A program made the position numbers and the translations under genes. A model generated the notes under the pieces. That model saw only the letters and a program-made list of their open reading frames with translations. It was not told the DNA's origin and searched no databases. A stretch of DNA of 5,396 nucleotides. Source: a virus (lineage: Duplodnaviria > Heunggongvirae > Uroviricota > Caudoviricetes). Numbering within the stretch: the first letter of the stretch is position 1; each line of letters starts with the position of its first letter. The stretch lies in IMG/VR virus record IMGVR_UViG_2778261244_000001. One strand, written 5' to 3'. Of this stretch, positions 1-5,396 are shown piece after piece.

Positions 1-26
1 TAGTCTAAAAACTAGTATTAAGACTA

Positions 27-1385
27 TCACTTATTTAAGTGATACTGGTTGTCTGGAGATTCAGGGGGCCAGTCTACCGTGTATGTGCCATTTTTTCGGG
101 CAAAATATTCTTCTTTTGTGATTTCAGTGGCGCCAGCAGCCAGTGCCTTATCCAGACCAGAGAGTTTGTTTGCGCGACCGTATTTTTCTCCGTCCTTATC
201 TGCGAAGAGGAAATAGAACGGCCCCTCACGCTCTACAGATGGTTCAGCTTCCGGCGCGGTTTCATTTTTTGGGATATCAGATACCTCAGTTTCCACTGCA
301 TCAGTTTGTGTTTCTGATGACTGGAGAACATCAACAGTGCCCAGGTCTGTTTCTTCATTCTCAAACACGCCCTTTGTCGTCAGGTATTCGCAGATATATT
401 TGTTCAGTGCTACGGGATCTTTGTGAATGTCGATCGGACGCTCACGGACAAGGCCAAAAATAGTTTGGCGGTCGTAGCGAAGGGCATCAGGCTGTTTGCG
501 CATTGATGCCGAGATACGCTTCCAGTCTTCGCGGTCGTTGTCGATAACTTCTTTTTTTGCCCAGCGATGGATGCTGCCGTCAATGTTTCCGGCATCCACA
601 TCACTAGGCCAGAGAGCGTAGGCCAGTTCGTCATCCAGTGTTTTCCATGTCTGCTTGTATTCGCGATGAATGGCAGCAATGACCGGGCTGATTTTTCCTG
701 TTGAATTTTCAGTGTACTGTTGATTGGCTCTGGCGCGGGCGAGATCAACAACAGACGTGTATTTTCCGGTTTCCTTGCGTTCACCTTCGCGACGTTTTTT
801 CCAGATGCGCATCTCTGCCTGAATTTCGGGCCATTTAGCACCAGGAATACATTTATGCTTAACCCACCCAATGGCGTGCAACTTAAGCTCCGGATACATG
901 GCGTTAACTTCTGGCATTTTCATCAACGCTTCAACGATATGTCCGTCGAATGTTGCCATGTCTTCCTGCAACAATTCCTGTGCGCTAATAACCATATCAA
1001 CGGTGATGTTTTCACATGTGTCGAACTTAACCATGACAGCGTTCTGTACTTCAGGGGCCAGCTTGTCAAAAGTGACGTTCATCGGATCGGATTCAGTCTC
1101 AACCGGGACAAAAGAAGCAGACTCCTCATCCCAGCGGTTTTCCTGCATATATTCAGCATCCCATGAATCGAGGGCAGGGCGGGGTATGCCAGGTTTATCC
1201 TCGCAGACAATAAATTTATAAGCGCAGTCCTGAGCAGCCGGATAATGTTCCAGGAATTGCCAGTGAAATTTTGCTCGAGCACGGCGTTCGTCGCCAGCTT
1301 CAATGGCTGTGGCTACAGCCACAGCGCCTTCTTCCCTTGTTGCCAGTTCGTCAGGAATAGCGGCGCAAATAAAGACTTTACTCAT
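27..1385 (-). CDS. Hypothetical protein, 452 aa, strongly acidic C-terminal third; family not recognised
   Basis: Long uninterrupted ORF (track 27..1421, TTG at 1419-1421). Preferred start is ATG at 1383-1385 (MSKVFICAAIP...), preceded in mRNA sense by GAGG about 9 nt upstream. Stop TGA at 27-29. No ATPase, nuclease or methyltransferase motif recognised by eye. Confidence 0.8.
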   Translation of the reverse strand: MSKVFICAAIPDELATREEGAVAVATAIEAGDERRARAKFHWQFLEHYPAAQDCAYKFIVCEDKPGIPRPALDSWDAEYMQENRWDEESASFVPVETESDPMNVTFDKLAPEVQNAVMVKFDTCENITVDMVISAQELLQEDMATFDGHIVEALMKMPEVNAMYPELKLHAIGWVKHKCIPGAKWPEIQAEMRIWKKRREGERKETGKYTSVVDLARARANQQYTENSTGKISPVIAAIHREYKQTWKTLDDELAYALWPSDVDAGNIDGSIHRWAKKEVIDNDREDWKRISASMRKQPDALRYDRQTIFGLVRERPIDIHKDPVALNKYICEYLTTKGVFENEETDLGTVDVLQSSETQTDAVETEVSDIPKNETAPEAEPSVEREGPFYFLFADKDGEKYGRANKLSGLDKALAAGATEITKEEYFARKNGTYTVDWPPESPDNQYHLNK

Positions 1386-1477
1386 TTGTTTTAACCTCAT
1401 GACAGATTTAAGGATGAACAAATCCCTGCCATTGCTGGCATATAAGAATGAAACCGGATATTTATTACGGAACTGTT

Positions 1478-1669
1478 TTAAAGACCTGCCGGGATTTCGA
1501 TATTATCCTGGTGAATAACTTTATCGACCGGGTAACAGTTACCGGGAATTTTCTGTTCGGTTGCTGCAGTCATACACTCCTGCATTGTCCTGTGAACACT
1601 GACTGCAATATCAACTGGCTCTCCGGAAACAAGAAAAACTGTCAGAACAAGCACAAATGCTGAATTCAT
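1478..1669 (-). CDS. Small putative secreted/periplasmic protein, 63 aa (MNSAFVLVLTVFLVSG... then polar region with two Cys)
   Basis: ATG at 1667-1669 preceded by AAGGA with 8-nt spacing. Start overlaps the upstream gene's stop as ATGA (translational coupling). N-terminus is a hydrophobic signal-peptide-like stretch. Part of track ORF 1478..1723; earlier starts lack an RBS. Confidence 0.45.
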   Translation of the reverse strand: MNSAFVLVLTVFLVSGEPVDIAVSVHRTMQECMTAATEQKIPGNCYPVDKVIHQDNIEIPAGL

Positions 1670-1854
1670 TGTGCACATCCTTTTGGCATCAGACGTAAAC
1701 GAGCCAGCATTGAAACAATGCATATTTTATTTAATAGCTCCCGTTCTTGTTTTCTCTTGTTAATGGCATCTTCAGTAAATACTGGGTTACTGATAGTGAC
1801 ACCAATTTCAAAACAACCTTCAGACGTATTAACGTTTGGTAATAACGTTTTCAT
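1666..1854 (-). CDS. Small hypothetical protein, 62 aa (MKTLLPNVNTSEGCFEIGV...)
   Basis: ATG at 1852-1854 preceded by GAGGA with 7-nt spacing. Stop TGA overlaps the start of the next gene (ATGA). Charged, protein-like composition; first gene of an apparent three-gene minus-strand operon. Confidence 0.4.
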   Translation of the reverse strand: MKTLLPNVNTSEGCFEIGVTISNPVFTEDAINKRKQERELLNKICIVSMLARLRLMPKGCAQ

Positions 1855-1906
1855 TATCGCGTCCTCAACAATGAATTTTGTGATGCAGTGCCTGGTGCCT
1901 CCAGGT

Positions 1907-1933
1907 GACGTTAACCAGTTAACAATTAACGCC
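1907..1933. promoter_or_regulatory. Cluster of three TTAAC motifs (GTTAAC-N2-GTTAAC-N2-TTAACG) in the divergent intergenic region; candidate operator
   Basis: Directly visible: GTTAAC at 1910-1915 and 1918-1923, ATTAACG at 1925-1931. Lies between the minus-strand operon start (1854) and the plus-strand ORF start (1938). No protein-binding evidence. Confidence 0.2.
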
Positions 1934-1937
1934 GGAT

Positions 1938-2267
1938 ATGTGCTGTGGCAGCCGCATGTTCTGGTTCGATAAGTCTGACGAACGGGCGATATTCAGCGAT
2001 ATCAGAAAAGAAGGATACACATTACGCAATGGGAGACGCTTGATTATCAGCCCTGACATTATCGCAGATTTTCGTGCATTATCATTTGCAGACGCATCTT
2101 TTTCGATGGTTGTATTAGACCCTCCGCATCTTGAGAGTGTTGGTGATAACGCCTGGATGGGAAAGAAATATGGACGGCTGAATAAAGATGCCTGGCGTGA
2201 TGATTCGCGACAGAGATTTAAAGAAGCCTTTCGGGTGTTGAGGCCGCACGGCGTTCTGATTTTTTAA
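1938..2267 (+). pseudogene. DNA (N6-adenine/N4-cytosine-type) methyltransferase-like fragment, 109 codons, DPPH motif; probably truncated
   Basis: Translation contains ...ADASFSMVVLDPPHLESVG... (D-P-P-H at nt 2118-2129), resembling motif IV (hydrophobic run + DPP[YFW]) of amino-methyltransferases, then ...RVLRPHGVLIF. Frame ends at TAA 2265-2267 but stays open for 29 more codons (WNETQIPVSQILAL...) to TAA 2355-2357. Too short for a full enzyme; no motif I (FxGxG) seen. Confidence 0.4.
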
Positions 2268-2426
2268 TGGAATGAAACGCAAATACCGGTAAGCCAGATT
2301 CTGGCACTGACAGACAGAAAACCTGTTATCTGTCAACGAACAGGGAAAAAACGATAAAACCCACTGGATTATTTTTATGAAAGAGGCATCCAGTGAGTAG
2401 ATTCGTAAGGCTACAGATACGTATAT

Positions 2427-2444
2427 CTGAATAATTAAATTCAG
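2427..2444. promoter_or_regulatory. Inverted repeat CTGAAT-N6-ATTCAG in an AT-rich intergenic stretch; candidate operator
   Basis: Perfect 6-bp arms at 2427-2432 and 2439-2444, about 85 bp upstream of the ORF at 2530. No clear sigma70 -35/-10 pair could be assigned. Confidence 0.2.
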
Positions 2445-2500
2445 TTCTGTAAATAAAATTTAATCCTTAACCGGATGGATTTCTGCACCCTCAGAACATC

Positions 2501-2532
2501 AGGAGGCCGCCCGAAAGGGCGGTAGTGAAATG
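2501..2532 (+). promoter_or_regulatory. Structured translation-initiation region: AGGAGG, then a 6-bp all-GC stem with GAAA loop, then ATG
   Basis: AGGAGG 2501-2506; stem CCGCCC 2507-2512 / GGGCGG 2517-2522 with GAAA loop; ATG at 2530. Linear SD-ATG spacing is about 23 nt, but about 7 nt if the hairpin forms. No U-tract follows, so not an intrinsic terminator. Confidence 0.3.
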
Positions 2533-2640
2533 CGAAAGTTCAAAATTATTATTGAAACGGGAATAGCTGGTGGAGATTTTGAGGATGTATTCGAAGTGGA
2601 CGATGACGCAACACCTGAGGAAATTCATGACGGAGCATAA
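2530..2640 (+). CDS. Small acidic ORF, 36 aa (MRKFKIIIETGIAGGDFEDVFEVDDDATPEEIHDGA)
   Basis: ATG 2530, TAA 2638-2640, preceded by the SD-hairpin arrangement. Too short for compositional support; may be a remnant. Confidence 0.3.
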   Translation: MRKFKIIIETGIAGGDFEDVFEVDDDATPEEIHDGA

Positions 2641-2881
2641 GAAATTTTCTTTAACTACTGCAATTACTCATACCACGAAATAAAAGACGATGAGGAAGAA
2701 CAAAGTGGCTGATTTTTGTTCAGCTAAATATAACATCAGTTTTGAAGAGCGGGATGAACTATTAATGGACTATGGTGAGTTACGCGGTGGAAGTGCTGCT
2801 GATGTCGAATCCTAGCGTGATGACTATGAAGCGGGAAAAACTCCGGTCGAAGCATATTGTGATGAGTGGGGCGATGAATGA
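2627..2881 (+). pseudogene. Small ORF interrupted by in-frame TAA (2681-2683) and TAG (2813-2815); reading frame otherwise continuous to TGA
   Basis: ATG 2627 preceded by GAGG with 6-nt spacing. Frame reads MTEHKKFSLTTAITHTTK-TAA-KTMRKNKVADFCSAKYNISFEERDELLMDYGELRGGSAADVES-TAG-RDDYEAGKTPVEAYCDEWGDE-TGA. The last 21 codons have no start codon of their own and end in an ATGA overlap with the next gene. Confidence 0.35.
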
Positions 2882-3165
2882 GCGAGATTAATTATCAGGA
2901 AGGGCATGAAACGGCGGGGCAAGCAAAACCAGTGGCATGGCGATATCGCTACGTGAAAAAAGGCGTTACGGACTTTCAGGGGAAGTAGTGGTCTGGTGAC
3001 TGGAAATATGTACCGAAAAAAGAGGATTGTAACGACAGGCCGAACTATCAAATTCAGGCCTTATTCACTGCCTCACCAGTCCCAGTTACATCAGAAGAAC
3101 TGGTTAAAGCTGTGCACTTTTATGAACAACTAAAACGCGAAAATCCACCAACATCCGGCAACTAG
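2878..3165 (+). pseudogene. Small phage-like ORF interrupted by one in-frame amber codon (TAG 2986-2988); 36 aa + stop + 58 aa in one frame
   Basis: ATG 2878 with purine-rich GGGG 6 nt upstream, and ATGA overlap with the upstream frame. Translation MSEINYQEGHETAGQAKPVAWRYRYVKKGVTDFQGK-TAG-WSGDWKYVPKKEDCNDRPNYQIQALFTASPVPVTSEELVKAVHFYEQLKRENPPTSGN-TAG. The downstream part is protein-like; the antisense ORF looks like junk. Confidence 0.45.
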
Positions 3166-3419
3166 ATTAATGGATTAACTATGTCGGTTAAACGACCAGC
3201 CAACTGAAAAAGCGGAAACCTGATTACAGGTTGCCAGATAAGGCAATGAGCTACCTGGCGCGGAACGGACTGATAAGTATGGGGAATGTTTTACGATGAA
3301 CCTTTAGACTAAAGAGTTTGTAACGCTATGTAAGTGATTTTTTCTGGTTTAGATATTTATATGTCCGGCCAAATTGAGGTGTGTTTAAATGTAATTGCAC
3401 ATTGATTGTAGGAGGAATA

Positions 3420-3599
3420 ATGAAAAACGCATTGCAGTTTTTGTTTGTTGCGTTCTGGTTGTTCGCATCATGTATGCCCATCATCTTCACAGCAAGGTAT
3501 ATGGAAAAAGTTGATGTTTTGATATTAATATTTGGATATATAAATGCCCTTTTTTTAGGGGTGTTCATGGCGGTCATGTGCATTGAATACTGGCGGTAA
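3420..3599 (+). CDS. Small hydrophobic protein, 59 aa, two predicted transmembrane helices
   Basis: Strong RBS AGGAGG (3410-3415) 4 nt before ATG 3420; stop TAA 3597-3599. Two hydrophobic segments (ALQFLFVAFWLFASCMPIIF and VLILIFGYINALFLGVFMAVMCI) separated by a short charged loop (TARYMEKVD). Gene is visibly AT-rich compared with its flanks. Confidence 0.55.
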   Translation: MKNALQFLFVAFWLFASCMPIIFTARYMEKVDVLILIFGYINALFLGVFMAVMCIEYWR

Positions 3600-3829
3600 A
3601 TACAGCGAACTCCATTGGTTTAGTTGGATATTTACTGTGCTGGACAAAAACGGTTTGCGGGGAAATCTTAGTTAAGTAGAATGACTGCGGGTGCTTGAGG
3701 CTATCTGCCTCGGGCATGGACACCAACGGCAGATAGAGAAAAGCCCCAGTTAACATTACGCGTCCTGCAAGACGCTTAACATTAATCTGAGGCCAATTTC
3801 ATGCTAGACACATGTAGGTTAGCCTCTTA

Positions 3830-3845
3830 CGTGCCGAAAGGCACG
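3830..3845. other. Stable hairpin CGTGCC-GAAA-GGCACG (GNRA-type tetraloop), not followed by a T-tract
   Basis: Perfect 6-bp stem with GAAA loop, about 90 bp upstream of the transposase start. Same architecture as the hairpin at 2507-2522. Confidence 0.3.
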
Positions 3846-3904
3846 GAGAAGCAGGCTATTGTTAACACCAAGCTGTAATGTCCCCTTTGAACCATTCTAA
3901 AATG

Positions 3905-3936
3905 TCCCCAGACAATTCTCTGGGGGATTTTTCATG
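3905..3936 (+). promoter_or_regulatory. Hairpin that places the transposase Shine-Dalgarno (GGGGGA) in its 3' arm
   Basis: TCCCCA 3905-3910 pairs with TGGGGG 3921-3926 (5 Watson-Crick pairs plus one G-U), 10-nt loop; ATG at 3934 lies 7 nt after the stem. RBS occlusion is a known way IS elements limit transposase translation. Confidence 0.35.
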
Positions 3937-5247
3937 ATCAAAGAGACTGTTACGATGAGTCATAAGGAACTCCACCGACTTCAGATTATTCAGGAACAAG
4001 CTGCGGCACGCATTGGCATTTCTATTCGGCAGGTTAAACGTCTGGTGCAACGGTATAGAAATGAAGGGCCTTCTGGTCTGGTTTCCCACCGACGTGGAAA
4101 GCGTCCTAATAATTCCTTTTCTACTGAATTCAGAGCAACAGTAATTTCACTCCTCAAAGGCCGTTACGCTGATTTTGGACCTACGTTTGCGTGCGAAAAA
4201 TTGCGCGAGATACACGGTTTATCTTTATCCGTTGAAACTCTCAGAAAGTGGATGATAGAAGTGGGGTTATGGCGTGAACGCCGTCGTAAAATTGCCCGTA
4301 TATATCAACGCCGCATGCGACGACCATCTTACGGTGAACTGATCCAGATTGATGGCTCACCTCATGACTGGTTTGAAAATCGAGGCCCCAGATGTACACT
4401 GATCGTTTTCATTGATGATGCCACCAGTGCGTTGATGGCGTTGCGTTTTGTGCCTGCTGAAACAACCCGGGCTTACATGGAAACCCTCCGGGGTTACCTT
4501 AATGATCATGGCGTACCGCTCGCTCTCTACTCTGATAGACACAGTATATTCAGGGTAAATAACCCAGAGCGGGAAGGTGAGCTGACCCAGTTCACTCGTG
4601 CGATAAAGACACTGGGCATCGAGCCAATCCATGCCAACAGCCCGCAGGCAAAAGGGCGGGTAGAGCGCGCCAATCAGACACTACAGGACAGGCTGGTCAA
4701 AGAAATGCGGCTTCAGAATATCAGTGATATTGAAACAGCAAATGCATGGTTGCCGACCTTTATTGAAGCCTATAACAACCGGTTCGCTACGTCGCCTCGT
4801 ACTACTGATAATGCTCATCTTGATGTGCACCATTCTGAAGAGGAACTGGGTTATATCTTCAGCCTACAGGCGAAGCGCGTTCTGTCTAAAAATCTCACTT
4901 TCCAGTACAAAAGCAGTGCGTTTCAGGTACGCAGTGAGGGCCGGGGATATCGACTTAGGCATTCGGTTGTTACTGTATGCGAGAACTTTGACGGTGAAAT
5001 TAACGTTCTGTATGACGGGAAAGCGCTGGGCTGGGAAAAGTATGTTGATGGCCCGGAGCCTATACCACTGGATGATGAAAAGAGTGTCCATGAACGAGTG
5101 GATAATGCCCGTATTGATTTACGCTCAAAATACTATGTTAAACCTAAAGCTGACCATCCCTGGCTTACGCGCCGAACGCAAAGTCATCAGCAAGTTAAGC
5201 CCCCGAAGTTACCTAAAAAGAAGCCTGATCCCGATAAAAAAGATTGA
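3934..5247 (+). CDS. DDE transposase (rve/integrase-core fold), ISNCY (IS1202-group) / IS481-like, 437 aa
   Basis: Intact 1314-nt ORF. N-terminal helix-turn-helix-like region (AAARIGISIRQVKRLVQRYRNEGPSGLVSHRRGKRP). Candidate catalytic residues in IQIDGSPHDW / VFIDDATS, LALYSDRHSIF, and GRVERANQTLQDRL (the G-x-V-E-R-x-N signature of retroviral-integrase-type transposases). Basic C-terminal tail. The ATG at 3955 (MSHKELHRLQII...) is an alternative start. Confidence 0.9.
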   Translation: MIKETVTMSHKELHRLQIIQEQAAARIGISIRQVKRLVQRYRNEGPSGLVSHRRGKRPNNSFSTEFRATVISLLKGRYADFGPTFACEKLREIHGLSLSVETLRKWMIEVGLWRERRRKIARIYQRRMRRPSYGELIQIDGSPHDWFENRGPRCTLIVFIDDATSALMALRFVPAETTRAYMETLRGYLNDHGVPLALYSDRHSIFRVNNPEREGELTQFTRAIKTLGIEPIHANSPQAKGRVERANQTLQDRLVKEMRLQNISDIETANAWLPTFIEAYNNRFATSPRTTDNAHLDVHHSEEELGYIFSLQAKRVLSKNLTFQYKSSAFQVRSEGRGYRLRHSVVTVCENFDGEINVLYDGKALGWEKYVDGPEPIPLDDEKSVHERVDNARIDLRSKYYVKPKADHPWLTRRTQSHQQVKPPKLPKKKPDPDKKD

Positions 5248-5279
5248 AACCAAGATCGATTCGGTTGAGTGCATTGATC

Positions 5280-5396
5280 CTACCCACGTAATATGGACAC
5301 AGGCCTAAGCGAGGTTCTGGTTTTCAAATTGTTCCGGACTGAGGCCGCCACACCAACTGTGCCGCCGCCACCGATTGTAATCACATTCGATATAAT
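5280..5396 (-). CDS. Possible 3' end of a minus-strand gene entering from the right edge (C-terminal 38 codons, glycine-rich: ...NVITIGGGGTVGVAASVRNNLKTRTSLRPVSILRG)
   Basis: Open frame from the window edge to TAG at 5280-5282; higher GC than the neighbouring DNA. Too short to identify; could be chance. Confidence 0.2.
   Translation of the reverse strand: MISNVITIGGGGTVGVAASVRNNLKTRTSLRPVSILRG

Follow-up and report, generated by a model that had tools for sequence, protein, structure and literature searches.

dicB, ydfD and an IS2-truncated exonuclease gene beside a 3.84-kb deletion in an Escherichia coli prophage

Genes of the locus and their conservation

The window analyzed here is an entire draft contig of 5396 bp that carries three co-oriented ORFs on the minus strand, exactly where the initial annotation had placed them: two short ones, encoding 62 aa and 63 aa, and a long one that spans positions 27-1385 and encodes 452 aa from its ATG (Table 1). 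A GAGG or AAGGA motif, read from the sequence, is located 9-14 nt 5' of each of the three start codons, in agreement with the earlier assignment of a separate SD to each of the small genes.

The first of the short ORFs is dicB. Its DNA is 100% identical to K-12 b1575, and the product matches both Pfam PF05358 (1.9e-40; 136.8 bits, cutoff 27) over its entire length (1-62 of 62) and the NCBIfam model CellDivInhibDicB (NF049927; 132.8 bits, cutoff 100). The second short ORF is ydfD, which is 100% identical to K-12 b1576, is named “lysis protein YdfD” by PGAP in E. coli 1303, and encodes a product matching Pfam DUF1482 (3.9e-26; 91.1 bits, cutoff 25) and PHROG 1092 (6.8e-36). The N-terminus of YdfD, previously described as signal-peptide-like, is indeed hydrophobic. 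The reported ATGA overlap lies at 1666-1669, where the dicB stop codon and the ydfD ATG share nucleotides, and couples the translation of ydfD to that of dicB.

Both small proteins have been studied in K-12. DicB binds MinC and brings it to the septum through ZipA, with Z-ring formation blocked as a result; besides this MinC-dependent inhibition of division, DicB blocks ManYZ-dependent phage entry, and lambda-like phages are excluded by its MinC-dependent inhibition of ManYZ (PMC6832061). YdfD binds IspG and causes the lysis of dividing cells (PMC8835842), a killing effect that is averted when DicB halts division. We found no sequence differences from the characterized K-12 DicB and YdfD. Judging by this identity, DicB of the window would be expected to bind MinC and to inhibit division and ManYZ as the K-12 protein does (PMC6832061), and YdfD to bind IspG and cause lysis (PMC8835842).

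The third ORF consists of the 5' part of a prophage exonuclease gene, known as the pseudogene ydfE in K-12, and a short tail encoded by IS2. Window positions 619-1938 cover dicB and ydfD completely and ydfE up to ~codon 256, and are identical (100%) to the DNA of the K-12 Qin prophage. Positions 77-5396 match, at 99.98% identity, a prophage locus of E. coli 1303 that adjoins rspB and for which the PGAP annotation gives dicB, ydfD and an “exonuclease” gene of 2472 nt, with xis and int after it. The dicBF operon is well known, and these genes are its distal part (PMC10448788), so that the operon proposed in the initial annotation is real. Almost certainly, the prophage is a cryptic, lambdoid one of the Qin type, integrated next to rspB in E. 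coli, and the trio forms the promoter-distal part of its early-left (PL-type, “dicBF”) operon. All three genes are already known, and the finding is an ordinary one, with the 452-aa ORF reduced to a gene fragment, because the exonuclease gene has been halved by an IS2 insertion.

Table 1. Features mapped in the window
Feature	Coordinates	Strand	Basis
IS2 copy, transposase-proximal end; remainder off the contig	1..76	-	100% match to IS2 ends
IS2-encoded last 16 codons (VDWPPESPDNQYHLNK) and TGA stop of the 452-aa ORF	27..76	-	alignment divergence after residue 436; IS2 match
ydfE', first 436 codons of the 823-codon prophage exonuclease gene	77..1385	-	WP_021570798.1 identity; PHROG 2082; Pfam YdfE_N and YdfE_C
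ydfD, 63-aa lysis protein YdfD (DUF1482)	1478..1669	-	Pfam; PHROG; K-12 b1576 identity; PGAP name in 1303
dicB, 62-aa cell-division inhibitor DicB	1666..1854	-	Pfam; NCBIfam; K-12 b1575 identity; PGAP name in 1303
Native leader left upstream of dicB, 84 nt	1855..1938	-	K-12 and prophage PhiR42_1 identity stops at 1938
Junction of the 3.84-kb deletion, 4-bp microhomology (GATA)	1935..1938	.	mapped against PhiR42_1
5'-truncated SAM-dependent DNA methyltransferase gene, divergent from dicB, far side of the deletion	1956..2267	+	PGAP; PADLOC

The small ORFs are conserved together with the large gene: a search of 5426 complete E. coli genomes detected the trio at a coverage of at least 80% in 3444 of them, and it recurs in the isolated lambdoid phages PhiR42_1, HannyBb, Tritos and mEp460, with the immunity region on one side and xis/int on the other. 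Tritos has the gene order cI, three small genes, DicF, dicB, ydfD, exonuclease, xis and int. No dicB or ydfD was found beside the YdfE_N-type genes of the distant phages BUCT708 and Gifsy-2, and the trio is therefore specific to Qin-type E. coli lambdoid phages.

Among the closest relatives, the K-12 MG1655 Qin genes dicB-ydfD-ydfE (b1575-b1577) share with the window the gene order, the 100% identical stretch and an IS2 insertion in ydfE. The insertion sites differ, however (~codon 256 in K-12, codon 436 in the window), and K-12 retains DicF, ydfABC, dicBp, dicA and dicC upstream of dicB, whereas the window has lost all of these. The trios of Tritos (OV696610), PhiR42_1 (PV340562), HannyBb and mEp460 are 93-100% identical to that of the window at the DNA level and occupy the same position, but these four phage and prophage genomes carry the complete 823-codon exonuclease gene, in contrast to the fragment in the window, which also lacks the regulatory region. 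Unlike the window, Tritos has DicF, the three small upstream genes and annotated cI/cro, and PhiR42_1 has genes of the YdfC and YdfB families and annotated cI/cro.

Deletion upstream of dicB and expression of the trio

Comparison with PhiR42_1 delineates the deletion: window positions 77-1938 correspond to PhiR42_1 3867-5728, and positions 1935-5274 correspond to 9568-12907. The missing segment encompasses DicF, ydfC, ydfB, ydfA, dicA (cI), dicC (cro), cII, O, LygF/DUF977 and the start of the methyltransferase gene, which in PhiR42_1 begins 28 nt before the junction. What remains of this gene is annotated by PGAP as “class I SAM-dependent methyltransferase” and matches the PADLOC model MTase_II (PDLC03288; 1.3e-37) at profile positions 13-122 of 169. 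The dicBp promoter and its operators are gone as well, with the identity to K-12 ending 84 nt upstream of dicB. An Rfam scan of the window (E-value up to 1) detected no DicF; its STnc100 candidate at 1879-2030 scored 20.9 bits against a gathering score of 47 and was dismissed as a chance match. The same deletion is present in several complete genomes, namely, 1303, G4/9, PigCaeca_2 and EC26.

Because DicF, ydfABC, dicBp and the DicA and DicC regulators have all been deleted, the three genes are probably poorly expressed and, by now, largely silent relics. Presumably, cells can tolerate the loss of the repressor only because the promoter was lost along with it.

A possible, albeit not a likely, alternative is that a minor promoter near dicB continues to drive dicB and ydfD, which would then act as a phage-exclusion and toxin pair free of DicA control. 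Both genes are intact and identical to those of K-12, the deletion has been kept in the four complete genomes listed above, and RegulonDB lists a promoter upstream of dicB, as quoted in PMC11430063; should this promoter fall in the 84-nt leader, transcription of dicB and ydfD could persist. However, no evidence for promoters other than dicBp was found in the region examined in PMC10448788, and our promoter scan yielded 4 sites versus 4.2 expected by chance, none of them in the 84-nt leader. Furthermore, DicB and YdfD are toxic when unregulated (PMC5069750, PMC8835842), and because a strain without DicA is nevertheless viable, their expression is expected to be very low. Accordingly, we favor the view that the trio is, for the most part, silent.

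The truncated exonuclease gene

The long ORF had been described as intact and as belonging to no recognizable family, neither of which holds. Its first 436 residues are identical to those of WP_021570798.1, an 823-aa protein of E. coli 1303; beyond them, the alignment diverges and the IS2-coded tail begins, so that ydfE' represents the 5' 1308 nt of the 823-codon gene. The ORF matches PHROG 2082, “exonuclease”, with E = 0 over profile positions 1-436 of 823, a confident match to a known phage family of the kind that the initial annotation itself had named as evidence against its reading. Precomputed Pfam matches for the exact product comprise PF27430 (YdfE_N) and PF27432 (YdfE_C); the local copy of Pfam gave no match for the 452-aa ORF because it predates both models. 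The full-length exonuclease gene is the intact form of the K-12 pseudogene ydfE.

The full-length 823-aa protein contains an Rv2179c-like 3'-5' exonuclease domain (DEDDh) at aa 642-813 (222.9 bits). This domain was not detected by Pfam in the window ORF, which stops at native residue 436. Thus, ydfE' has kept the YdfE_N and YdfE_C modules, an acidic linker and a small beta-hairpin/helix domain, and has lost the zinc-ribbon region and the 3'-5' exonuclease domain. On the strength of these alignments, we classify the window ORF as a truncated pseudogene of the YdfE-type exonuclease family rather than a working member, and any YdfE' product would be devoid of nuclease activity.

Related systems also include RecE (exonuclease VIII; Rac prophage) and the RecE-type proteins of HK225, Gifsy-1/2 and SPN3UB, whose genes occupy the same place in the early-left operon. 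Over aa 262-627, a segment that takes in the CxxC...CPDC zinc ribbon, the full-length YdfE-type protein shares 39% identity with RecE; other RecE-type proteins are 27-28% identical to it over residues 136-336. The nucleases themselves differ: the YdfE-type proteins carry the DEDDh Rv2179c-like 3'-5' domain, whereas RecE is a PD-(D/E)XK 5'-3' enzyme (DUF3799/PDDEXK in Gifsy-2). Also unlike the RecE systems, the exonuclease gene is not followed by recT, and the fragment in the window contains no nuclease domain at all. Assignment to RecE/exodeoxyribonuclease VIII proper (NCBIfam NF007259) was rejected, with scores of 49.9 bits for the fragment and 281.6 bits for the full-length protein against a cutoff of 1269, the matches being confined to the central region.

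For the N-terminal part, searches of PDB with sequences and profiles revealed no relative of solved structure; with the full-length protein as the query, the nuclease domain alone was matched. AlphaFold2 run on a shallow alignment (22 sequences, 85-100% identical) produced an unusable model (pLDDT 45), and adding a distant Klebsiella/Salmonella subfamily, reached via a phage tblastn match, raised the pLDDT to 75.5.

These observations bear on an alternative that we consider unlikely, namely, that the 436-residue fragment is still made and acts independently, perhaps as an accessory to recombination or as a module that binds other proteins, with the nuclease dispensable or selected against. The model predicts four confident regions (1-97, 101-204, 245-343 and 388-436), all upstream of the break, and the same module is fused to other nucleases, such as the RecE-type PD-(D/E)XK enzyme of Gifsy-2, as would fit an independent module; its identity to RecE-type proteins is 27-43% over aa 136-336 or 242-336. 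Moreover, ydfE' retains its start codon and ribosome-binding site, and in K-12 the same gene was truncated independently by IS2, at ~codon 256. Against this, the operon promoter is deleted in the window, ydfE is annotated as a pseudogene in K-12, and our literature search found no functional studies of YdfE or of its N-terminal part. Two truncations at different sites do not demonstrate selection. IS insertions in the genes of cryptic prophages are common decay events. It is a distinctly improbable extension of the same idea that the YdfE N-terminal module (~340 residues) is an independent unit, for instance, a platform for host or recombination factors, which works without the nuclease, with the repeated IS2 truncations (~codon 256 and 436) reflecting selection. 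We retain the interpretation of ydfE' as a pseudogene.

Its 3' boundary is a junction with IS2. Thousands of records contain IS2 ends that match window positions 1-76 at 100% identity (in 7044 from E. coli, at least 80% of the 76 bases are covered). In NZ_AP018488, a CDS annotated as “IS3-like element IS2 family transposase” begins 16 nt downstream of the match. The transposase would read on the minus strand, in the same direction as ydfE. With the insertion of IS2 after codon 436, the gene has lost its zinc-ribbon region and its DEDDh 3'-5' exonuclease domain, and the ydfE reading frame closes 16 codons into the IS2 end. The contig ends 76 nt into IS2, so that one side of the insertion is seen. 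None of the 5426 complete E. coli genomes contains this exact ydfE-IS2 junction.

It is very improbable that this junction is an assembly artefact and that the source genome carries an intact exonuclease gene. The contig is a short draft one with repeats at both ends, and many database partials of the protein break at residues 433-448 (P0005, 433 aa; P0086, 441 aa; P0001, 443 aa; P0061, 448 aa). These partials appear to be assembly breaks because the center of the gene, from ~residue 262, is common to RecE-type genes of other prophages; however, they run on with native sequence (GLPQNV...) rather than with IS2. In the window, by contrast, 76 nt of a genuine IS2 end join codon 436 directly, as expected at a true junction on a repeat boundary, and the identical contig is on record in 3 samples.

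Acidic composition, setting and significance of the locus

The initial annotation emphasized a very acidic tail of ~100 residues, which was an overstatement: Asp and Glu account for 20% of the last 100 residues compared to 18.4% of the whole ORF (pI 4.9), and the most acidic stretch (29% Asp and Glu) is found at residues 340-390. Most of this stretch (residues 344-384) has a pLDDT below 50 in the AlphaFold model and is probably a flexible linker. The full-length protein is equally acidic (pI 4.6) and, therefore, the acidity is a family trait that is not special to the 452-aa ORF.

That this ORF encodes an acidic DNA-mimic, anti-nuclease or anti-defense protein is extremely improbable: its composition and a region rich in mobile elements might suggest such a role, but it is a fragment of an exonuclease gene, the low pLDDT of most of the acidic stretch suggests a flexible linker rather than a folded DNA-like surface, no similar structure has been solved, and a PADLOC search (E-value up to 0.01) gave no match for this ORF, DicB or YdfD. 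Ocr, ArdA and similar mimics share with it the overall acidity alone; no sequence or fold similarity to them was detected, and its acidic stretch probably lies, as a linker, within a multidomain nuclease. Neither a compact DNA-like carboxylate fold nor similarity to a known mimic was found, and we did not assign it to the DNA-mimic anti-restriction class. The setting next to decayed genes and IS elements had been described correctly, and its defense-like character holds to some extent for DicB, which blocks ManYZ-dependent phage entry (PMC6832061), but not for the 452-aa ORF. Phage exclusion by DicB is known from the literature only, with no matching PADLOC model.

As a discovery, the locus carries little weight: dicB and ydfD have been characterized before, and ydfE is already listed as a pseudogene of a prophage exonuclease that is itself common. 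The value of the analysis lies mainly in the correction, that is, a seemingly intact long ORF beside an IS can be a fragment whose stop codon comes from the IS end. Two further, minor aspects may interest prophage specialists. The N-terminal module of YdfE, which also occurs in RecE-type proteins and is joined to nuclease domains of unrelated types from one lambdoid phage to another, is widespread in E. coli. The locus is also a natural deletion variant in which the toxic dicB-ydfD pair persists without its repressor, promoter and DicF.

The dicB-ydfD-ydfE' trio as part of a dicBF-type operon

The three minus-strand genes that the initial annotation had read as a compact operon are real and coupled: they appear as co-oriented entries in the ORF list, the 62-aa and 63-aa ORFs overlap by an ATGA in the minus-strand sequence, and a GAGG or AAGGA motif precedes all three starts. 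The 62-aa ORF matches the DicB family (Pfam, 1.9e-40; also above the NCBIfam cutoff), and the 63-aa ORF the DUF1482/YdfD family (3.9e-26). Window 619-1938, which spans dicB (b1575), ydfD (b1576) and the part of the ydfE pseudogene (b1577) upstream of the K-12 IS2E insertion, is 100% identical to the cryptic prophage Qin of Escherichia coli K-12 MG1655. E. coli 1303 has, next to rspB, a prophage locus with 99.98% identity to window 77-5396; its PGAP gene order runs int, xis, an exonuclease gene of 2472 nt, ydfD (named “lysis protein YdfD”), dicB, a fragment of a methyltransferase gene, pseudogenes, the transposase of an ISNCY element, ydfW and IS3.

Both small genes keep company with the large one in other genomes: segment 77-1938 is present in 3444 of the 5426 complete E. 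coli genomes at a coverage of at least 80%, and also in the lambdoid phages and prophages PhiR42_1, HannyBb, Tritos and mEp460. The gene order in Tritos (cI, three small genes, DicF, dicB, ydfD, the 823-aa exonuclease, xis, int) is that of the dicBF operon in K-12, whose promoter is dicBp and whose repressor is DicA (PMC10448788). Thus, the operon reading holds, and the trio belongs to a known phage early-left operon rather than to new cargo. In the distant phages BUCT708 and Gifsy-2, which encode YdfE_N-type proteins, the genes upstream encode neither DicB nor YdfD.

Features of the window, with strand and supporting evidence
Feature	Position	Strand	Evidence
dicB ORF, 62 aa	1666-1854	minus	ORF list and strand sequence
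ydfD ORF, 63 aa	1478-1669	minus	ORF list and strand sequence
ydfE' ORF, 452 aa from ATG, 464 aa from upstream TTG	27-1385	minus	ORF list and strand sequence
SAM-dependent DNA methyltransferase fragment	1956-2267	plus	PADLOC MTase_II, 1.3e-37, profile positions 13-122 of 169
Decayed small genes	2400-3300	plus	PGAP in E. coli 1303
sok match, hok/sok-type toxin-antitoxin leader	3689-3860	plus	Rfam, 104 bits (gathering score 59)
ISNCY-family transposase ORF, 437 codons	3934-5247	plus	NCBIfam NF033594, 2.3e-136
ydfW, annotated gene of 49 codons	5098-5247	plus	In frame with the ISNCY transposase ORF, same stop codon

An IS2-truncated exonuclease gene

The large ORF, previously described as long, intact and of unrecognised family, is a gene fragment. 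In the alignment, residues 1-436 are identical to those of an 823-aa E. coli 1303 protein (“exonuclease”), and the final 16 are unrelated to it; these 16 residues and the stop are encoded at window 27-76, within an IS2 end (window 1-76) that has 100% matches in thousands of E. coli records and, in an annotated example, precedes the IS2 transposase gene by 16 nt. The ORF also aligns with positions 1-436 of the 823 in the PHROG 2082 profile (“exonuclease”) and has matches to YdfE_N and YdfE_C, two newer Pfam families. The third gene belongs, in truncated form, to the YdfE-type family of prophage exonucleases, and by the NCBIfam exonuclease VIII model it is not a RecE equivalog. Because the Rv2179c-like DEDDh 3'-5' exonuclease domain, located at residues 642-813 of the full-length protein, is missing from the window's ORF, the fragment should have no nuclease activity. 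The insertion is read from one side only, the window being the entire 5396-bp draft contig NOEA01000063.1 (GCA_002517555.1), which ends inside IS copies (IS2 on the left, window 1-76, and IS3 on the right, ~5275-5396), and the exact ydfE-IS2 junction was found in none of the complete E. coli genomes of the collection.

Over residues 262-627, a span that takes in the CxxC...CPDC zinc-ribbon region, the full-length protein shares 39% identity with Rac RecE; residues 136-336 share 27-28% identity with RecE-type proteins of HK225, Gifsy-1/2 and SPN3UB, and residues 242-336 ~43% with Klebsiella phage proteins. The nuclease domains themselves are unrelated, DEDDh in the YdfE type and PD-(D/E)XK in the RecE type. 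This combination identifies the N-terminal and central region as a module joined to different nucleases, a case of domain shuffling among lambdoid early-left exonucleases. The region common with RecE presumably explains why many draft-assembly partials of this protein end at residues 433-448. Within that region of the full-length homologue (L001, 4838-7309, minus strand), identity to Rac RecE is much higher from ~aa 470, the site of the CxxC...CPDC motif.

The AlphaFold2 model built with a deeper alignment (pLDDT 75.5, pTM 0.33) has confident regions at 1-97 (alpha/beta), 101-204 and 245-343 (helical) and 388-436 (a beta-hairpin plus helices). The low-confidence stretches 205-238 and 344-384 are probably flexible linkers, the latter covering most of the acidic stretch, residues 340-390 (29% D+E). 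The earlier description of the last ~100 residues as very rich in Asp/Glu was overstated, with 20% D+E vs 18.4% in the whole ORF. Nothing points to the DNA mimic once speculated upon, and PADLOC gave no match for the ORF. PDB sequence and profile searches returned no match for the N-terminal part, and a literature search found no paper addressing YdfE function. Of all the readings, just one has some novelty, namely that the N-terminal module acts on its own and was kept after truncation; it appears very improbable: ydfE has been truncated by IS2 at two different sites, but this is weak evidence for retention.

Loss of the regulatory region and decay of the flanking genes

Relative to prophage PhiR42_1 of ECOR13 (locus L006, 5729-9571), 3.84 kb are missing between window 1938 and 1939, with a 4-bp microhomology, GATA, at the junction (window 1935-1939). 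The deletion, also found as one-piece matches in the complete genomes 1303, G4/9, PigCaeca_2 and EC26, removed DicF, ydfC, ydfB, ydfA, dicA (cI), dicC (cro), cII, O, LygF/DUF977 and the first 28 nt of the methyltransferase gene. An Rfam scan found no DicF match in the window; a weak STnc100 match spanning the junction (window 1879-2030, minus strand; 20.9 bits, gathering score 47, E = 0.21) is probably due to chance. Only 84 nt of native leader are left upstream of dicB, beyond which the genes lie on the other strand, and a consensus promoter scan found promoter-like sites no more often than by chance and none in this leader. The deletion leaves the toxic dicB-ydfD pair without repressor, promoter and sRNA. 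Since the dicBF operon is toxic when expressed (PMC5069750, PMC10448788), we infer that the repressor could be lost because the promoter went too, and that expression of the three genes is now poor.

The methyltransferase fragment, which lost its 5' end at the junction and is still annotated by PGAP as a 103-aa protein, also matches an orphan MTase model (3e-26). The decayed genes beyond it include, in the PGAP annotation of E. coli 1303, a pseudogene of the DUF7167 family that has an internal stop (~window 2530-2712) and a hypothetical one inactivated by a frameshift (~2878-3299); intact versions occur in lambdoid phages, e.g., vB_EcoS-640R1. Homology with phages that carry hok extends only as far as window 3859, a point ~59 nt inside the vB_EcoS-640R1 CDS for a “host killer protein”; the ISNCY element comes next, so that the toxin ORF appears to have been cut off by the ISNCY insertion. 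In the PGAP annotation, the ISNCY transposase is marked incomplete and ydfW stands as its own gene; given the reading frame and stop codon common to both, and that K-12 retains only window 5063-5274 of this region, K-12 “protein YdfW” looks like a C-terminal remnant of the transposase.

DicB and YdfD activities and relationship to Qin

DicB binds MinC and brings it to the septum via ZipA, blocking Z-ring formation, and the same MinC-dependent activity inhibits ManYZ and lowers lambda infection ~100-fold (PMC6832061). Overexpressed YdfD, which binds IspG of the MEP pathway, causes cell lysis; extra IspG or a supply of its product HMBPP relieves this lysis, and a stop of division by DicB or SulA prevents it (PMC8835842). 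Both proteins of the window are identical to those of K-12, and these mechanisms would carry over directly. A phage-exclusion link thus exists for the suggested defence setting, through DicB (PMC6832061) and not through the large ORF, a gene fragment.

The nearest known locus is dicB-ydfD-ydfE of K-12 Qin, from which the window differs in the IS2 insertion point in ydfE (codon 436 vs ~codon 256 in K-12) and in having lost both DicF and the regulatory region. Both differences are decay events, not new biology, and the trio is already known.
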